This document shows, in pieces, positions 12,127-23,064 of a stretch of DNA of 64,000 nt. This stretch comes from Naegleria gruberi (Eukaryota). Position 1 is the first letter of the stretch. Every line of letters starts with the position of its first letter. Both the position numbers and the translations under genes were made by a program. Location: assembly GCA_000004985.1 (NCBI GenBank), contig GG738846.1; one strand, given 5' to 3'. The notes under the pieces were generated by a model. It was given only the letters and a program-made list of their open reading frames with translations. It searched no databases and was not told the origin of the DNA.

Positions 12127-12820
12127 ATGGCTAAACACTTTCCTACTCAGTTTGGATCCACTTCTTCACGAGACGATTTTACTAACGATCTACACTTTGT
12201 AAAAGCATTCAAGAGGGAAGAAAAAAAAACACCATTATTCTGTGCGAATGATTTTCTCACATTACGAAATGGTGACGTTATTAAAATTAAAATTATTAAA
12301 GTATGTTGATGGATGAATTAATAATTCTAAACTAGAGTCGTACAGGGTGAGGAACTTGTAGTTTGTGATATAAATGGAAAGGCTGGTAAGTTTGGAATTT
12401 ATTGGTGTCAGTGTGTTTATCTTTTTGAAATTAATTTATGCAAATGGAATTACTTTGTTAGATCCATGGTAAGTTTGTAATTCATTGGTTAATGTTTATT
12501 TGGAATGAATTTGGAAAAGGTGTCAGATATATGTCAAGGGATTTAATGAAACACCCTCTACAAGTGTTGTTAAAAAGACTTTGAATCCTGTTTGGGATGA
12601 AAGTTTTTCATTTATAGTGACTGATAGTGAGCTTCTTTCTGTGGATATTGTATTTAGAGTGATGGATAGAGATATGTTTTCCGATGATTTTATGGGTCAA
12701 TCGGTTGTATATTTAACTAGGAAAGATTTTTCTCTGAATTGTTTCAAGAATTTCACTTTACCGTTGGTGGGTGTTGATCATGGATTGTTACACGTGTCAA
12801 TAGGTGTTTTTAGAGATTAA
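12127..12820 (+). CDS. Small C2-domain protein. About 4 exons: 12127-12300, about 12342-12381, a possible 7-nt micro-exon near 12458-12464, and 12516-12820.
   Basis: C-terminal exon encodes a C2-like fold (VVKKTLNPVWDESFSFIVTD...VMDRDMFSDDFMGQSVVYL). Donors gtatgt and gtaagt. AAAAATG start. Confidence 0.55.
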
Positions 12821-13399
12821 CAGATTATAGTTTTAGAAAATCATCCTTAATGTTAACTAATTTTACAAATACAACAATCTAACAATTTTAAGCAATATTT
12901 TATTAATACATTGGATGTAGATCAATTTGGCCTTCATCTGCAGAATCTGCCAAATTAAAGTATTTGGAAGCTGTATTAGGAGTACTCTTCATCATGGTCG
13001 TTCTCCTATTTTCACCAGCACTTGCTATGGAACTACTTGGGCTTGAACCTAGTTCTTCTTCGACAATGGTTTGGAAATCTTTTTGGTCAACCTGTATTCT
13101 TAATTGCTTCTTTTTAGGTATATCTTTTTTGTTAGGGATAACCTTATTCTTAGGTGTATTTTTTACAGAGGATTGATTTTGCCTAGTTGGTGGAGCAGAT
13201 GATGGCCTAGTACCTCTTTTCTCATTCTTTGGAAGAACGCTCTTATAGTAACCAACAACTCCAGCTGCCTTTTTCTTATTGAAATTATCTATTGGATGAG
13301 GATAAGAGTAGCCTTTTCCTTCCTTATTTACAACCATTGAATTTCTCTTTGTTTCCTCAGCAAATTCATCCAGCTCCTTATCAGGTAGAAACTCGTACT
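12591..13399. repeat. Copy 1 of a ~808-bp near-identical (~99%) segmental duplication (copy 2 at 14182-14989)
   Basis: Direct comparison shows only a few substitutions (e.g. gtattagg vs gtaccagg; gccttttcc vs gccctttcc). Covers the 3' end of the C2 gene and the 3' end of a convergent minus-strand gene. Confidence 0.85.
12903..13397 (-). pseudogene. Truncated paralog (the C-terminal 144 codons) of the 14494-15576 gene; upstream sequence diverges at 13399
   Basis: The 144-aa ORF is identical except for one residue to the C-terminus of the 360-aa protein at 14494-15576. It lacks that gene's N-terminal 216 codons. The upstream ORF (13328-13540) is in a different frame. Confidence 0.45.
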
Positions 13400-13656
13400 A
13401 TTTGAATAATCAAAATCAATAACTTCATCTTGTTGTTCCATCTTTCTTCGTTGTTGATCCTCTCCCATTCTATTTAAACTCGATAGAACAGAAACCAAAG
13501 GTTTGGTTTTCATAACTGGTTCAACAAGACTGTTAGTCATTTATAAGAATACTATCAAAAACCCTTACTACTTACATTTCATCATCTTCTTCCACCAACA
13601 GTGGTTGCCAATTTTGCACTGCAGGGGCAACATATTCACTAGCTGGAGAAAACATT
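13328..13656 (-). CDS. Hypothetical small chimeric ORF. Exon 1 is about 13572-13656 (MFSPASEYVAPAVQNWQPLLVEEDDEM). After a gtaagtagtaagg intron, an exon reads into the duplicated segment out of frame with the paralog ORF.
   Basis: ATG plus a GTAAGT donor on the minus strand. The ORF ends at 13328. May be a young chimeric gene or non-functional. Confidence 0.25.
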
Positions 13657-14181: not shown

Positions 14182-14411
14182 TTTGGGATGAAAGTTTTTC
14201 ATTTATAGTGACTGATAGTGAGCTTCTTTCTGTGGATATTGTATTTAGAGTGATGGATAGAGATATGTTNTCAGATGATTTTATGGGTCAATCGGTTGTA
14301 TATTTAACTAGGAAAGATTTTTCTCTGAATTGTTTCAAGAATTTCACTTTACCGTTGGTGGGTGTTGATCATGGATTGTTACACGTGTCAATAGGTGTTT
14401 TTAGAGATTAA
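14182..14411 (+). CDS. 3' fragment of a C2-domain coding exon (duplicate of 12591-12820), preceded by the gap
   Basis: Identical protein tail ...VGVDHGLLHVSIGVFRD. Contains one n at 14270. Confidence 0.45.
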
Positions 14412-14989
14412 CAGATTATAGTTTTAGAAAATCATCCTTAATGTTAACTAATTTTACAAATACAACAATCTAACAATTTTAAGCAATATTTTATTAATAC
14501 ATTGGATGTAGATCAATTTGGCCTTCATCTGCAGAATCTGCCAAATTAAAGTATTTGGAAGCTGTACCAGGAGTACTCTTCATCATGGTCGTTCTCCTAT
14601 TTTCACCAGCACTTGCTATGGAACTACTTGGGCTTGAACCTAGTTCTTCTTCGACAATGGTTTGGAAATCTTTTTGGTCAACCTGTATTCTTAATTGCTT
14701 CTTTTTAGGTATATCTTTTTTGTTAGGGATAACCTTATTCTTAGGTGTATTTTTTACAGAGGATTGATTTTGCCTAGTTGGTGGAGCAGATGATGGCCTA
14801 GTACCTCTTTTCTCATTCTTTGGAAGAACGCTCTTATAGTAACCAACAACTCCAGCTGCCTTTTTCTTATTGAAATTATCTATTGGATGAGGATAAGAGT
14901 AGCCCTTTCCTTCCTTATTTACAACCATTGAATTTCTCTTTGTTTCCTCAGCAAATTCATCCAGCTCCTTATCAGGTAGAAACTCGTAC
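14182..14989. repeat. Copy 2 of the ~808-bp segmental duplication
   Basis: Near-identical to 12591-13399. Begins exactly at the gap edge. Confidence 0.85.
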
Positions 14990-15576
14990 ATATAATCAGG
15001 TATTCTTTCACTTGCAATTTTATAGTACTCTCTTGTCTTGGCTGTCAAATCTTTGATGGATTCTAGTTGATCCGCGAGAAGGGTAAACGTTGTTCTCTTA
15101 TCTCTTACAACTTGGTCATCATCAGGTATTTGAGAAAGTTGGGTGTGAATTTTGGAATAGGATAATTCAGCCATCTTTAACAATGAGTCGAGTTCTCCTG
15201 GTGTTGAAAGGGCAGCTACTTCATGTGGTTGTACATCTACTAGGGCTAGTTTTTTCTCTATTGGCAGAGGCTTTACTCTGAAGTAATTGAAATCTTGCAG
15301 AATTTCATTAAGGTAGTGATATGTCTTCGGTTTTAGAGGGGAGGACACTGATTTTCTCAGCTTGACTGATGCAGTCACCGTAGACTTTTGTCGTTTCTTC
15401 TCCTTCTTTCTTATGAGACGTTTCATTTTCATTTCAATTGCAAAGGCATCCTTCTTTTTGGCAAAAATTTCCTCAATATTATTCTTTAGATCCTTCTTTT
15501 TAAATTCCTCCTCTGCTATGGTTTTTTTCACTTCTATTGAAGGTATTTTCCTTCCCCTTTGTTTACTAGCGTCCAT
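14494..15576 (-). CDS. Hypothetical 360-aa basic K/E-rich protein, single exon
   Basis: ATG verified at 15574-15576 (MDASKQRGRK). Charged N-terminal region then a P/S/K-rich tail. Its last 144 aa are duplicated at 12903-13337. Confidence 0.55.
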   Translation of the reverse strand: MDASKQRGRKIPSIEVKKTIAEEEFKKKDLKNNIEEIFAKKKDAFAIEMKMKRLIRKKEKKRQKSTVTASVKLRKSVSSPLKPKTYHYLNEILQDFNYFRVKPLPIEKKLALVDVQPHEVAALSTPGELDSLLKMAELSYSKIHTQLSQIPDDDQVVRDKRTTFTLLADQLESIKDLTAKTREYYKIASERIPDYMYEFLPDKELDEFAEETKRNSMVVNKEGKGYSYPHPIDNFNKKKAAGVVGYYKSVLPKNEKRGTRPSSAPPTRQNQSSVKNTPKNKVIPNKKDIPKKKQLRIQVDQKDFQTIVEEELGSSPSSSIASAGENRRTTMMKSTPGTASKYFNLADSADEGQIDLHPMY

Positions 15577-16133: not shown

Positions 16134-18976
16134 TTAATTGTTATTCAACCCTCTTTGTGAAAAGTAGTGATGTTTTAAAATAGAGCCAGCATCTGGTCGT
16201 CTTTCTGGATCCTTCTCCAACATGCTAAACACCAACTCCACCAACTCTAATGAATAGATCTGTAAACTAATCTTCTCCTTTAATATTTGTTTGACAGTTT
16301 CAGAATCCTTTAACATGTACATTTGATTGATGGAAGTTGTTGTATCATGAGATAGAATCTGGTATAGAGTAACTCCCAAACTGAATATATCAGTTTTATG
16401 ATCACATGAAATTCCACACAACAATTCTGGTGAAATATACAATGGAGTTCCAGCTAATGAAAAACTGGTTGATTGTTTTGAGTTTTTTGCCAAACCAAAA
16501 TCAGCAATGATAATGTCAATGGCTGAATCATTCATTTTCTGAATGAAAATATTGGAAGGTTTAATATCTCTGTGAATAACTCTGATTTAGTGTTAAATCC
16601 ACATATTTTAATATGTTTCTAAACTTACCCAAAGTTGATGAAAATATAATCCAAGGCACTACATGATTGAAATAATATTTGAGCAATTAAAAGTTCTGAA
16701 CAAAATTTGGATCCAGTAATGAGTCTATTCAAATCACCCATCTCATAATAAGTCATATCAATACATAGAATTTGACCATTTCCAATAAAGAAATCATTCA
16801 CTTTGAGAACATTTGGGTGATTCATCTTTAAAAGTTGAATTCCTTCTCTCATAGCCACGTTCAAATCTTCATGGTTATCAAATCTAACCACTTTGATTGC
16901 TTTGACTTCATTATTACATTTAGTGTCATTCACTTTAAACACACTTCCACCTTGTCCAATCTTTACCAAATTTGTATATCTATCCATTGGATCATTTTGA
17001 GATTCTTTTGAAGATGAAGTATATTGAGAAGGGAAATCAGAAATCATTGTTGATTGTGTGAATGATTTTAATTCTTCTTCCGAAGGATTCACCGTATCAA
17101 TGTTCAAAGTTGCTTCCTTTGCTCTATTTCTATTAATTAACACAATAATGATAATTACAAAAATTACAATGATTAAAATTACAATAAATAGGGTTGGAAC
17201 AAGTACTGCAACTAGTATAGTTGTTTGATCAGATTGAGCACTAAGATTTGTTCCATTATTTTGCTTATTAATTGCTGAGCAATCCTTATTATAAGTTGTT
17301 ACATCTGATGTTGGACATGTACAAGTGTCAGGAGCTGTACATTCACCAATACTTGAACAAACCAGTCTACTACTAGAAGAAACTCCAAAACAATTAAATG
17401 TTTCACAATCAGCTCCACTATAACCTGTCTGACATGAACAATTGTTTGGTGCAATGCAATTTCCTTTTGAGGAACATACGTTTACATCTGTTTTGAGTAT
17501 ATTATTACATTTAAACATGCTACATGTGGAATTTAGATATCCACTATTACAAGTACATTCATCTTTGGCAGTACATTTACCAAAACCTGAACAAACATTT
17601 GGTTGACTATTTGATATTCCAAAACATGAATATTCCTGACAATACGACCCATTATAATGATCTTGACATGAACAAGCATTATATGCATAACAAAATCCAT
17701 GTGAAGAACAAACACCTGAACTGTCATATCTTACTCCATTGCAATTAAATAAATTACAACTAGTTCCATATCCAAAATATCCTTCAAAACAATTACAATC
17801 ACTTCCTGATTGAGTAGAATTTAAAGGACATGGTACAATTTTTCTAATATAATTATAATTAGTGTCTGCAATAAATATTTCACCCAATTGATTGATTGAA
17901 ACTCCATGAGGTGATAAATTTGTAGAATTTCCCAATAAACCATCCCCATTGAAAAGTTGATTTCCTGTTCCAGCAAATGTTGAAATAATTCCACTTGTTG
18001 AAATCTTTCTAACTCTGAAATTGACTGAATCTGCAAAAAATACTTCACCCAATTGATTTACTGTAATTCCTCTAGGTGAAAATATCTTTGCCATTGTTCC
18101 TAATATTCCATCTCCATTGTAACCATTTGAACCTATTCCAGCAATTGTGGTAATCGTACCATTTGTCAATATTTTACGAATTCTAGAATGAGAGAGAACT
18201 GAAATGTATACTTGACCTATTTGGTCAACTGCAACACCTGTAGGAGAACAAATATTTGCATTAGTTGCTAAAATACCATCTCCATTAAAATCACATGATC
18301 CTGTTCCAGCAATTGTTGTAATGGTACCATTTGTCAAAATTTTACGAATTCTATTATTTCCAGTATCTTTCCAAATTTAACAGTTAAAAGTTCAACAATA
18401 ATACCTACCTGCAATTATAACTTCTCCCAATTGACTAATAGCAACTGCATTTGGATTTTTAACATTGGCACTTGTTGACGGAATAAAATCACCATTATAG
18501 GCTCCATCTCCAACACTAGTCCCAGCAATTGTTGTTATGGTACCATTTGTCAATATTTTACGAATCCTATTTCCAAATTCAGCAATAATAATTTCACTCA
18601 GTTGACTAACAGCAATATCATAGGGATAGTAAAGTTGGGCATTGGTAGCTAGTATGTTATCACCATTATATCCAGCAGTACCAGTTCCAGCAATTGTTGT
18701 TATTGTGCCATTAGTTAAAATCTTTCGAATACGATGATTGCTCGTATCTGATATCAGAATCTCCCCAGTTGATTCGAGAAAGGCAACAGATGAAGGTGAA
18801 TTTAGAGTTGCAGATGATGCCAACATGTAATCTCCATTGTAAACACTTGAACCCGTTCCAGCAATTACTTTCAAATAGTTTCCAACTCCAAAAGTTGTTT
18901 GTTGTGCTGTGCTTGTTTCAACAACCAACCATGCAGAAAGTAGAAGCAAGCACATGTAAATGATTTGTCGAAACAT
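16134..18976 (-). CDS. Receptor-like Ser/Thr protein kinase: signal peptide, NHL repeats, EGF-like Cys-rich repeats, TM, then kinase domain. 3 exons: about 18410-18976, 16629-18362, 16134-16584.
   Basis: N-terminal MFRQIIYMCLLLLSAWLVVETSTAQ. Repeated ..GTGxxGYNGDG.LAT.A.L..P.GVAV..LGEV.IAD..N.RIRKI (NHL-like) 6-7 times. Cys-rich CxxxxxCxCxxGYxGxxC units. TM LVAVLVPTLFIVILIIVIFVIIIIVLI. Kinase motifs GQGGSVFKV, KAIK, HRDIKPSNIF, DFGLAK, GTPLYISPE. Introns gtaggt...ggaaag and gtaagttt...aatcag keep frame. Confidence 0.7.
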
Positions 18977-19865: not shown

Positions 19866-21839
19866 ATGAAACCAACAACAGAAGCATCATCTTTTCGAAA
19901 CAATAGAAATCGTTCCTCAACTCTTCCTATGAGGTTGTCAAAGAATATGGCTATTGAAAATATCAATCAGTCAATAAAACAATCATTTAGAAATTCAAAA
20001 ACCACAGTTGACCTAAATGAAAGTCAAGGAAGTATGATTATAAAAGATAGAATTTCTTTCTCTAGAAGTAGGCGTTCAAGCACAGCATCAGGTTCAAAAC
20101 AGCCAACATCACTCTACAAGAGACTCTTATCCAACCTCAAACATGGTGATGATTCCATGTCAGACATTATAAGTGAAACATCATATGACACTTCCATGTC
20201 GGGTTTAGTAACGTCATCTATGGGAATAGGTTTCAGATTAAATGGAGCCAACAACACTCCCACACACAAACAAGAAATATCCGAATTGAATAATTTAGTT
20301 TCTCAATTCATGTGTTGTGGCTTTCCAATTGTGGTTTTTGACAAGAAGGGTTGTATTGTCTATATGAATAGAGAATCAGAGGAAATGTTTGGAACATTTA
20401 GTTTTTCAGTATTGGGTGAAGATTTAGTTGAGGTTTTTATGGAGGACACAATTCTCGATATTCACACGTTAATTGATGATTTTTTAGGATTTTCAATGGA
20501 AGATATTGAAGGAGTTGACAGGAAGAATATCAGTCTCAAGAATATGCCTTATGAATTATTGAGCGAGGAAGATAAATCAAAGAGAAGAAGTCACCTTTCA
20601 AAAGAGAGAATTTTGAAAGGAAAATCAATAACTTTGAATCAATTCTTTACCATCTCAACAAAACTTGTTCCAATTAAGAAGAAACATGAAATTCACTTTT
20701 GTGCCTATATGAAATTTGTTGAATTTATTGATAATGAAGAGTTGAACACAATATATGAGAATTTAGATTCCGTTCATGTACAAATTACAAATGCAAGTAT
20801 TGTTCCAATTGTGGCGATTAATGATAAGGGAAGTGTTTTGGTATTCAATAAGGCTGCCACACTGACATTTGGATATGAAAATAGTGAAATAATTGGAAGA
20901 AATGTCAAAATTATTTGTAATAGAAAAGATAGAATGAATCATGACATGTATTTGGAGAGATTTGCCAAAACTGAAAAGAAGAAAATTCTAGATCGTATTA
21001 AGAAAGTCAAAGGTCAAACAAAAGATGGTAAAAGTATTCCAGTGGAAATCAAAATTTCTCAAATTGTCAAAAATGGTCAATCATTATTTGTTGCCTATTT
21101 CAGAGATTACAAATTATTATCCAATCAAGATGAACAAATGACAGGTATTGCAGAAAAGATTTATCCAAGAAATATTGCAGAAAGATTAAGTATGGGCCAG
21201 AAAATCATTGACCAAGTTGATGGATGTTCCATGTTATATTGTGATTTGGTTGGTTTTACAGAGTTATCATCAACCATGCCACCTAAACAAGTTGTTTCTC
21301 TACTACACTCAATATTTTCAAATTTTGATGAAATTTGTCAAAAGTTCAAGATGGAAAAGATTAAAACAATAGGAGATAGTTACTTTTTAGCTTCTGGTTT
21401 AAGGAATGAAACTAGTTCAGTTGACCATATGATTAAGGGTGGTCTTTTAATGATTACAACAGTGAATCAATTTTCAGAATCGACAGGAAATAGTTTACAA
21501 GTTAGAGTTGGAATTCACACCTCAATAGGAGGTGATGTCATTGCAGCTGTAGTTGGTAAAGTGAAGAGAACGTACGATCTCTTTGGGTCTGATGTTAAAA
21601 TTGCTCAACTAATGGAAATGACTGGAATTACTAATGAATTACACATCTCCAACAATACCTACAAATCCATCAAGAGTGAAAAGAGAAAATCACTCTTTAT
21701 TGAAAAATTCAAAGAGGGAGATGAAATTTTAATGGACAAGTATGCAGAACCATTGCAGATACCGACAAATAGTTGGGTAACACACAATGTGTTAGAATTA
21801 CTCAATAGAGATAAGGAAAAGTCAATTCAACAACAATAA
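19866..21839 (+). CDS. PAS-PAS-class III nucleotidyl cyclase homology domain protein (657 aa), single exon
   Basis: Two PAS folds (CCGFPIVVFDKKGCIVYMNRESEEMFG..; IVPIVAINDKGSVLVFNKAATLTFGYENSEIIGRNVKII..). C-terminal CHD with LYCDLVGFT, KIKTIGDSYF and GGDVIAAVVGKVKRTYDLFGSDVKIAQLMEMTG. ATG verified at 19866. Confidence 0.75.
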   Translation: MKPTTEASSFRNNRNRSSTLPMRLSKNMAIENINQSIKQSFRNSKTTVDLNESQGSMIIKDRISFSRSRRSSTASGSKQPTSLYKRLLSNLKHGDDSMSDIISETSYDTSMSGLVTSSMGIGFRLNGANNTPTHKQEISELNNLVSQFMCCGFPIVVFDKKGCIVYMNRESEEMFGTFSFSVLGEDLVEVFMEDTILDIHTLIDDFLGFSMEDIEGVDRKNISLKNMPYELLSEEDKSKRRSHLSKERILKGKSITLNQFFTISTKLVPIKKKHEIHFCAYMKFVEFIDNEELNTIYENLDSVHVQITNASIVPIVAINDKGSVLVFNKAATLTFGYENSEIIGRNVKIICNRKDRMNHDMYLERFAKTEKKKILDRIKKVKGQTKDGKSIPVEIKISQIVKNGQSLFVAYFRDYKLLSNQDEQMTGIAEKIYPRNIAERLSMGQKIIDQVDGCSMLYCDLVGFTELSSTMPPKQVVSLLHSIFSNFDEICQKFKMEKIKTIGDSYFLASGLRNETSSVDHMIKGGLLMITTVNQFSESTGNSLQVRVGIHTSIGGDVIAAVVGKVKRTYDLFGSDVKIAQLMEMTGITNELHISNNTYKSIKSEKRKSLFIEKFKEGDEILMDKYAEPLQIPTNSWVTHNVLELLNRDKEKSIQQQ

Positions 21840-22203: not shown

Positions 22204-23064
22204 ATGGAACAAATCTACGCCAATACCAAAGACTCTCTATTTTGTATTAAACGTTTTCAAGAATTACTAAAAACAAGTTATATAGGACGATCGATCGTGT
22301 ATCGGAATCAAGTGGAAACAACAATGGACATTGGAAGGAGAGAGGCTGAGGAGGGTTGTTTGACTGGAACACTCATCTTGGCAGAGGAACAAACAAAAGG
22401 AAGAGGAAGGAGAGGTAGAGAATGGAGCAGTGCAGGGAAGGGAAAGAATTTGTATTTTACTATTGTATTTCATGTTAGATTGGATAATGCACAGGAATTG
22501 ATAAAACTTAATTTGGCAATTCCTTTGGCAATTACTATTACTTTGAGAGATGAAGGATTGGAAAATTGTGGAATTAAATGGCCAAATGATGTTTGGGTCA
22601 TTCCAAACGAAAAGGATTCACTTCCATCTAAAATTAGTGGAATGTTAATTGATAGTGTACAATCTGGAGAAACTTTATTTGCATTGGCAGGAATTGGAAT
22701 TAATCTCAATAGTTCATTCAAGAGTACATCACTTACCCAAGGTGAAAATGCTCTTCCAAATGTTGCTATTTCATTCCTTGATGCTACCAATAAGAGTGTA
22801 GATAGAGAAAAATTTCTTGCTCAATTGTGTAATACTTTGGAAAACTTATTGGCATTTTCACAAAAGGATGTAATTACTCTGTACAAATCACATGATATTC
22901 TTATTGGAAAGGATATTACCATATCACCATCAGATAAATCACCATCATATACTGCCAAAGCTGTTGGTATTTCCAAGTTTGGTAACTTGATGGTTGAAAT
23001 GAAAGATGGAACAGGTGTCAAGGAAATGATTGCTGAAGAAGTTTCCATTCGACCATTAGAATAA
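22204..23064 (+). CDS. Biotin-protein ligase (BirA-type catalytic domain, class I size)
   Basis: Motif TKGRGRRGREWSS..GKGKNLYFT matches the BirA GRGRxGRxW signature. A possible alternative 5' exon lies at 21898-22038 (see findings). Confidence 0.7.
   Translation: MEQIYANTKDSLFCIKRFQELLKTSYIGRSIVYRNQVETTMDIGRREAEEGCLTGTLILAEEQTKGRGRRGREWSSAGKGKNLYFTIVFHVRLDNAQELIKLNLAIPLAITITLRDEGLENCGIKWPNDVWVIPNEKDSLPSKISGMLIDSVQSGETLFALAGIGINLNSSFKSTSLTQGENALPNVAISFLDATNKSVDREKFLAQLCNTLENLLAFSQKDVITLYKSHDILIGKDITISPSDKSPSYTAKAVGISKFGNLMVEMKDGTGVKEMIAEEVSIRPLE

Follow-up and report, generated by a model that had tools for sequence, protein, structure and literature searches.

A 64,000-nucleotide stretch of Naegleria gruberi NEG-M DNA (contig GG738846.1, hereafter the window) contains an open reading frame (ORF) at 19866..21839 on the + strand that starts with ATG and encodes, probably in a single exon, a protein of 657 amino acids (aa) plus stop, in the order PAS domain, predicted heme-binding PAS domain, cyclase-transducer-like element (CTE) and class III cyclase domain. 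Judged from alignments, the cyclase domain is a C1/alpha-type half-site, which keeps the metal face of the active site, has lost the face that carries the catalytic Asn and Arg, and lacks an Arg of the AC5 R484 type. We tentatively propose, with somewhat less than an even chance of being right, that this protein may be an alpha-type subunit, regulated by heme, of a heterodimeric cyclase that would work like soluble guanylate cyclase (sGC) but be assembled from different parts. A preliminary description of the window had pointed out the same 657-aa PAS-PAS-cyclase ORF; its coordinates are exact, and Pfam and AlphaFold2 agree on the architecture.

Active-site residues of the cyclase domain

According to Table 1 of PMC6005667, the C1 or sGC alpha half of the active site supplies two metal-binding Asp residues and one phosphate-binding Arg, and its base positions hold Lys/Asp (or Glu/Cys) as vestiges. 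The base pair that functions comes from the C2 or sGC beta half, as do the ribose Asn and both the Arg and the Lys that bind phosphate. The cyclase homology domain of the N. gruberi protein (aa 450-640, 21213..21785, + strand; Pfam PF00211, Guanylate_cyc, aa 450-605, E 2.1e-41) was aligned by HMMER with bovine/human AC9 and, in a MAFFT alignment, with a set that comprised nine Naegleria-clade sequences from three species, 15 outside relatives, and AC9 C1 and C2. Both metal Asp residues are present. The first, D460 (codon 21243..21245, + strand; AC5 C1 D396), is carried by 'lycdlvgft' and is Asp in 8 of the 9 clade members, with Glu in P0055, and in all 15 canonical relatives. The second, D504 (codon 21375..21377, + strand; AC5 C1 D440), is carried by 'iktigdsyf' and is Asp throughout (9/9 in the clade, 15/15 in the canonical relatives). 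The base positions are of the ATP type, Lys at K500 and Asp at D571, each again found in 9/9 clade members and 15/15 canonical relatives.

The opposite face of the site has changed. Where AC9 C2 reads 'ydiwgdtvniasrmdttg' and AC9 C1 reads 'fdvwsndvnlanlmeqlg', the query reads 'ydlfgsdvkiaqlmemtg', with K578 (codon 21597..21599, + strand) at the ribose-Asn position (AC2 C2 N1025) and L582 (codon 21609..21611, + strand) at the transition-state Arg position (AC2 C2 R1029). Across the clade the first position holds K/E/E/E/E/A/L/T/S and the second L/M/L/L/I/L/L/L/S, so that Asn and Arg each occur in none of the nine sequences, while all 15 canonical relatives have Asn and Arg. A misalignment in this segment was looked for and can be ruled out, since the HMMER alignment with AC9 C1 and C2 agrees with the MAFFT alignment against the 15 canonical relatives. 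The two metal Asp residues, the replacement of Asn by Lys and of Arg by Leu, and the reading 'AAVVG' in place of 'AGVVG' had all been reported in the preliminary description and hold up here; 'AAVVG' is common to 8 of the 9 clade members.

The C-terminal part of the domain differs as well. The Lys of the 'xKGxG' hairpin is present in 14 of 14 canonical relatives, while the clade has D, E, G or P in that column. In the query hairpin (beta7-beta8, the gamma-phosphate Lys column) D624 is the aligned residue, K625 follows it and the hairpin is longer; the call of the gamma-phosphate Lys is ambiguous because in 7 of the 9 clade members the next position downstream in the altered hairpin is a Lys. 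The PF00211 match spans positions 5-158 of 183 in the query and ends at ~156-162 in the clade, while the Percolomonas protein described below and P0088 reach 180/183. The phosphate Arg of the AC5 R484 / sGC alpha R574 type is absent from the query, which reads 'HTSIGGDV' with a 'TSIGGD' insertion, and an Arg near the AC5 R484 position occurs only in some paralogues (P0051, 'HTGRDV'; P0057, 'HTSHRGV'). In the alignment of cyclase domains the clade shows no invariant basic residue of its own.

Residue by residue, the query fits the C1/alpha column of PMC6005667 Table 1, vestigial Lys and Asp included, apart from the missing R484-type Arg. Bit scores, which do not depend on reading motifs, follow the same division. 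The query cyclase domain scored 90.7 bits against AC9 C1 vs 50.5 against C2, and 100.6 against sGC alpha vs 54.5-54.8 against sGC beta. The clade-wide loss of Asn and Arg, with metal Asp 2, K500 and D571 kept in 9/9 members, suggests that selection has acted only on the metal face. Simple decay is hard to square with the strict conservation of this face, and a conserved substitute mechanism with the variable and non-conservative replacements of Asn and Arg.

PAS domains, linker and the predicted heme pocket

The AlphaFold2 model is a monomer of aa 130-657, built from a 14-sequence alignment with the N-terminal region excluded (mean predicted local distance difference test score 77.9, predicted template modelling score 0.42), and shows two alpha/beta domains of PAS-like form, then a pair of short linker helices and then the cyclase domain. 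In Foldseek searches the closest full-length architectures were sGC chains (8hbe_A and others), DosP and the tandem PAS-A/PAS-B FixL, and isolated cyclase domains matched with template modelling scores to the target of 0.73-0.86; PDB matches of the cyclase domain were AC9, AC8, AC5, sGC and Rv1625c. Pfam located a PAS domain at aa 306-414 (E 3.3e-17) and, more weakly, another one ahead of it at aa 153-201 (PAS_4, 1.1e-06; PAS_8, 3e-06), scores that lie well outside chance, and no H-NOX/HNOB match was found by Pfam in the query.

The second PAS domain (PAS2; 20733..21107, + strand, aa ~290-414 with its N-terminal helix) is of the FixL type. Its best 13 PDB matches were all FixL or DosP/EcDOS heme-PAS domains, with E 7.5e-18 to Rhizobium meliloti FixL (RmFixL), and the next matches were weak (E > 1e-3). 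The alignment with B. japonicum FixL (BjFixL) covers 101 aa with zero gaps, and BjFixL heme-pocket positions were compared in 11 Naegleria-clade sequences. H359 (codon 20940..20942, + strand), the predicted proximal heme ligand corresponding to BjFixL H200, is invariant (11/11) and sits on a helix in the AlphaFold2 model (model residues 224-240). Y362 corresponds to BjFixL Y203 (Y or F in the clade), and R365 to the FG-loop Arg R206 (R or K where aligned). K373 occupies the position of H214, which is basic in 9/11. Around the distal side, I374 (BjFixL I215) is hydrophobic in 10/11, with Thr in P0002, I395 (L236) is hydrophobic in 10/11, with Thr in P0059, and I397 (I238) is hydrophobic in the clade. 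K379 stands at the position of R220, the distal residue in contact with O2, which is Arg in 8, Lys in 2 and Thr in 1 (P0055) of the 11; with Lys here, the ligand selectivity of the query could differ.

From this pattern PAS2 is strongly predicted to bind heme b via H359. In heme-PAS domains one conserved residue, a His, usually suffices, and such domains have several independent origins (PMC10468136); the same PAS survey found N. gruberi to be rich in PAS proteins. The preliminary description had suggested a small-molecule, redox or light input and had excluded a LOV domain. The latter point stands, as the translation contains no 'NCRFLQ'-type motif with the flavin-adduct Cys and no LOV entry is among the PAS2 PDB matches. 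Of the inputs, the redox option survives and a gas can be set beside it, while light and a generic small molecule lose ground, since a FixL-type PAS2 with a conserved proximal His makes a signal from a gas or from redox state the likely one.

The first PAS domain (PAS1; 20262..20717, + strand, aa ~133-284, model residues 4-155) is a divergent, lineage-specific PAS-like domain, with only the weak PAS_4/PAS_8 matches in Pfam. A charged helix is inserted in it, and the motifs 'CGFP' and 'YLNxEAExLFG' are conserved. Its main role may be dimerisation, as the analogous PAS-A of FixL suggests. A PAS1 profile search gave zero matches, not even PAS1 itself, which reflects a word-index limit and is not evidence of absence. 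Between PAS2 and the cyclase domain lies a CTE-like linker (21126..21191, + strand, aa ~421-442, QMTGIAEKIYPRNIAERLSMGQ), which corresponds to the two short helices of the model and aligns with the segment preceding AC9 C2 ('llrniipyhvaeqlk') and with the equivalent element in all relatives.

The N-terminal region (19866..20252, + strand, aa 1-129) is rich in Ser, Asn and Arg and has no Pfam match. Paralogue N-terminal regions, which otherwise do not align, keep a basic motif 'KRGIS(R/S)R'. Its counterpart in the query is 'KRLLS' (20118-20132, + strand, aa 85-89), speculatively a possible phosphorylation site for a basophilic kinase.

The Naegleria family, a possible partner and the locus

When 1.84 billion representative proteins were scanned exhaustively with HMMER, end-to-end relatives of the query (39-52% identity) were found in Naegleria exclusively, and the closest proteins are N. 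gruberi predicted proteins with 50% and 45% identity. The relatives are P0001, P0002, P0056, P0057 and P0059 in N. gruberi, P0051 and P0058 in N. fowleri, and P0054 and P0055 in N. lovaniensis. A FixL-like PAS combined with a cyclase domain also occurs in other lineages, namely Percolomonas cosmopolitus, the jakobid Andalucia godoyi, a Leptospiraceae bacterium and many metagenomic sequences, in shorter or multi-PAS proteins. The protein of Percolomonas, a heterolobosean, has the same PAS1-PAS2-cyclase layout as the query, with Asn, Arg and Lys intact. Because this protein shares the layout and is fully canonical, the canonical form would most simply be ancestral and the loss specific to the Naegleria clade. 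One-off decay or a pseudogene is ruled out by the intact ORF and by a residue pattern common to nine sequences from three species. P0055, in which metal Asp 1 is Glu, has diverged further (Pfam 88.8 bits vs 142-151 for the query and P0001) and may have turned into a dead regulatory pseudo-cyclase.

Several family members and matches have features of their own. In P0002, PAS1-PAS2 leads directly into a cellulase (PF00150) at the place of the cyclase domain; either the gene model has been fused or the domain has genuinely been replaced. The sequence of P0054 jumps from the heme-His motif region to the linker, so that the C-terminal half of PAS2 is missing, probably through a gene-model error. 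Two multi-heme-PAS cyclases outside the Naegleria clade, P0085 and P0137, read 'DAVEFASEMES' and 'EAAIFANELES'; they keep both metal Asp residues and lack the Asn/Arg pair and the KGKG hairpin, which suggests from their motifs that one-sided loss arose there independently. The top-scoring matches of the representative search (P0010-P0050) are giant proteins of 1,700-5,500 aa with at least 13 tandem FixL-like PAS domains, and P0010 and P0013 have no Pfam domain besides these. The remaining cyclase matches in that search were considered as Naegleria partners and rejected; they are 12-transmembrane or P-type-ATPase two-domain cyclases, and the query matches their C1-type half.

Under the arrangement that we propose, a soluble sensor protein would detect O2 (or NO, CO or the redox state) through a PAS2 heme on H359 in a FixL-like manner, and the signal would run from the PAS2 C-terminus through the short helical linker 'IYPRNIAERL' to the cyclase dimer. 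The cyclase domain retains the C1 or sGC alpha half of the active site, that is, the two metal Asp residues, and of the C2 or sGC beta half it has lost the Asn for ribose, the Arg for the transition state and, as it appears, the KGxG hairpin. Because this half is lost, a homodimer would hold two crippled sites, and since the chain offers the metal face alone, a competent site could arise only with a partner bearing Asn and Arg. Such a partner would be a second Naegleria cyclase domain, fully canonical or beta-type, and the pair would have one competent site under heme control. We infer the partner's existence, the signal, heme binding and the product (cAMP or cGMP). Complementation of this kind is described for Rv1625c, of which the D300A and R376A mutants are each dead alone and complement one another, as stated in the passage of PMC4821796 that cites Guo 2001. 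The chytrid NeoR/RGC proteins are single-domain sensor-cyclases that form obligate heterodimers and arose via duplication in a microbial eukaryote (PMC10622942). The genus Naegleria has at least 81 cyclases, and N. gruberi is reported to have many of them (PMC9928731).

Several points weigh against this arrangement. The complementary C2/beta-type subunit is an assumption. A tblastn search of the 64-kb window with the query cyclase domain found no second cyclase domain. The position of the gamma-phosphate Lys (Phos(8)) is ambiguous, given the neighbouring Lys in most clade members, and the distal Arg of FixL is replaced in the query by K379, although 8 of the 11 compared sequences have Arg. A profile search with the clade linker plus cyclase domain recovered only bacterial cyclases (33-44% identity) and is uninformative, as the input family itself was not recovered. 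A wider form of the proposal, that heterolobosean amoebae evolved a heme-gated heterodimeric cyclase independently and convergently with animal sGC, by placing a FixL heme-PAS on an alpha-like subunit that pairs with a beta-like partner, is one we regard as doubtful.

The preliminary description had left a choice between a regulatory pseudo-cyclase, a subunit in need of a partner and a divergent enzyme. This was a sound choice to pose, and the genus-wide C1/alpha residue pattern now favours the partner-needing subunit over the divergent enzyme. A pseudo-cyclase is unlikely in our estimate, and yet the main rival. Homodimers or poisoned heterodimers would bind metal-nucleotide and never cyclise it, and the protein would act as a heme-controlled scaffold, a nucleotide sensor or a dominant-negative regulator of other Naegleria cyclases. 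It would account for Asn and Arg being gone in 9/9 clade members with variable, non-conservative replacements, for the diverged C-terminal hairpin and for the state of P0055; it also fits the failure to find a partner in the 64-kb window and in the technically weak profile searches, and the inactivity of the isolated NeoR cyclase domain (PMC10622942). However, D504, K500 and D571 are strictly kept over three species and D460 nearly so, which is hard to explain without catalysis that uses them, and the loss is one-sided, as in genuine C1/alpha subunits of active enzymes. An active homodimer in which other residues stabilise the transition state is very improbable. K500, D571 and both metal Asp residues are intact, so that substrate and metal binding could be normal, and K578 is a basic residue near the site; but the Asn position varies among K, E, A, L, T and S, hydrophobic residues or Ser fill the Arg position throughout, and neither a conserved substitute nor an invariant clade-specific basic residue appears in the alignment. 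In the homologous Rv1625c the single mutation R376A is enough to abolish activity, according to the same passage of PMC4821796.

A separate doubt concerns the sensor. PAS2 might carry no heme, its likeness to FixL reflecting common descent, and might bind another ligand or serve dimerisation only. The prediction of heme draws only on sequence, the query has Lys and P0055 has Thr in place of the distal Arg, and a single-His requirement with repeated origins makes motif-based calls risky (PMC10468136). Nevertheless, all 11 sequences have the proximal His, the FG loop keeps its Arg/Lys, a basic residue stands at the H214 position in 9/11, the hydrophobic distal residues are kept, and every significant PDB match is a heme protein, so we consider a heme-free PAS2 quite unlikely.

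Turning to the gene itself, all three frames upstream of the ORF are rich in stop codons, and a tblastn search of this upstream region with the first 520 aa of P0001, a longer paralogue, gave no match. A gene with one exon, as the preliminary description had it, is plausible on these two grounds. The same description had placed the protein among the dictyostelids, which is incorrect. N. gruberi NEG-M XP_002668454.1 / EFC35710.1, a 129-aa entry on an 8.6-kb scaffold, matches the C-terminal end of the protein (window positions 21453-21839) at 100% identity, and 6 of 10 neighbouring ORFs checked are exact N. gruberi proteins, whose entries lie on a 1.0-Mb scaffold. For the neighbouring biotin ligase (22204-23064, + strand) there are two N. 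gruberi accessions; EFC49951 lies on the 1.0-Mb scaffold, and EFC35709 lies on the 8.6-kb scaffold, where it adjoins EFC35710. Since one of the two adjoins the cyclase fragment, the 8.6-kb scaffold is probably a redundant copy of this locus. No record of the exact full-length 657-aa product was found in the protein collections searched.

The neighbouring genes encode an NHL/EGF receptor-like kinase, the biotin ligase and a thiolase, functions unrelated to a cyclase. Two adjacent ORFs at 16625-18337 and 18392-18976 (both - strand) have NHL/teneurin-like repeats, and the downstream one also matches EGF-like, transmembrane-like and protein-kinase domains; they are probably one receptor-kinase gene split by a short intron. 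An 812-bp direct repeat is present at ~12591-13401 and ~14182-14993 (99.3% identity, copies ~1.6 kb apart), and its second copy overlaps a 360-aa ORF at 14494-15576 (- strand) that has no Pfam match. Two 212-aa ORFs side by side at 39.7-41.0 kb were considered as a tandem pair and rejected, as they are unrelated to each other.

Comparison with known systems

Among eukaryotic sensors that couple O2 or another gas directly to the making of cyclic nucleotides, the well-characterised ones are mainly the H-NOX guanylate cyclases and a single globin-coupled cyclase of Leishmania. A cyclase with a heme-PAS of the FixL type would add a third solution to these two. The literature searched contained no paper naming these genes by locus tag and none describing, for Naegleria or any other organism, a cyclase with a FixL-type heme-PAS, and no characterised homologue with the PAS-PAS-cyclase architecture was found. 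The modules are all known; their combination and the family-wide one-sided loss in the active site are uncharacterised. In the literature searched, the Naegleria pangenome paper included, hemerythrins are the sole named possible O2 sensors of Naegleria. If the wider proposal of a convergent, heme-gated heterodimer is true, O2, NO or CO would be linked directly to a cyclic nucleotide in Naegleria, the pathogen N. fowleri included, and the paralogues would be interchangeable sensor subunits that tune one or few catalytic partners. An oxygen-to-cAMP/cGMP link would bear on Naegleria ecology and possibly on infection. The one-sided loss over a gene family would also be a natural case for the evolution from homodimer to obligate heterodimer, with Percolomonas-type proteins as the outgroup, and modular heme-PAS cyclases could serve as gas-switchable tools.

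The nearest proteins in domain composition are the canonical heme-PAS cyclases of Percolomonas cosmopolitus (A0A7S1KT32), Andalucia godoyi (ANDGO_07835) and Leptospiraceae (MBE7413536), for which no characterising paper was found in the literature searched. They share the FixL-like PAS, linker and cyclase domain with the query, and the Percolomonas protein has PAS1 in addition. They differ in that Asn, Arg and the Lys of KGxG are all kept, and by prediction each would be self-sufficient as a homodimer. The dependence on a partner proposed for the query has its likeness elsewhere. As given in the passage of PMC4821796 noted above for the R376A/D300A pair of Rv1625c, a single-domain cyclase without the transition-state Arg is dead alone and active with a partner that supplies Arg, and NeoR/RGC resemble the proposed model in being obligate heterodimers of single-domain sensor-cyclases that arose by gene duplication (PMC10622942). 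The former is an engineered bacterial mutant and the latter a rhodopsin photoreceptor, and neither has a heme-PAS input.

On the sensory side, the rhizobial O2 sensor kinase FixL and E. coli DosP/EcDOS share with the query the proximal His, the FG-loop Arg and the distal Ile/Leu, PAS2 aligns gap-free with BjFixL, and the tandem PAS arrangement of the query is like the PAS-A/PAS-B of 8js5. The output of the query is a class III cyclase, in contrast to a histidine kinase or EAL/GGDEF domains, its Arg220 equivalent is Lys and its host is a eukaryote. On the catalytic side, AC9 C1 is the highest-scoring solved relative, and the mammalian AC C1 domains (AC9, AC5) share with the query the two metal Asp residues, the 'NDVxLAN(L/H)ME'-type motif without Arg, a vestigial base-position Asp and apparently the absence of a KGKG hairpin; at the other base position, the query and AC5 C1 have Lys, whereas AC9 C1 has Ser. 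Unlike these C1 domains, which are fused to C2 in one 12-transmembrane polypeptide, the query domain stands alone on a soluble PAS protein, and it has the 'TSIGGD' insertion in place of an AC5 Arg484 equivalent.

The closest overall parallel is the alpha chain of sGC, the alpha/beta heterodimeric NO receptor of animals. Each chain has one cyclase domain, which in sGC alpha as in the query gives the metal Asp residues and not the ribose Asn, the phosphate Arg or, as it appears, the phosphate Lys; the order of sensor, PAS, helical linker and cyclase is the same, and heme-based gas sensing, a property of the sGC holoenzyme, is predicted for the query. sGC chains are the best full-length structural match, and the query is closer to alpha than to beta. 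The two differ in that the query has no H-NOX domain and its predicted heme would lie in a FixL-type PAS on the alpha-like chain itself, and in that its base positions are Lys/Asp (ATP type), compared with Glu/Cys in sGC alpha; its host is a heterolobosean amoeba. The N. gruberi protein is in this respect an analogue of sGC and not a member of the H-NOX family.

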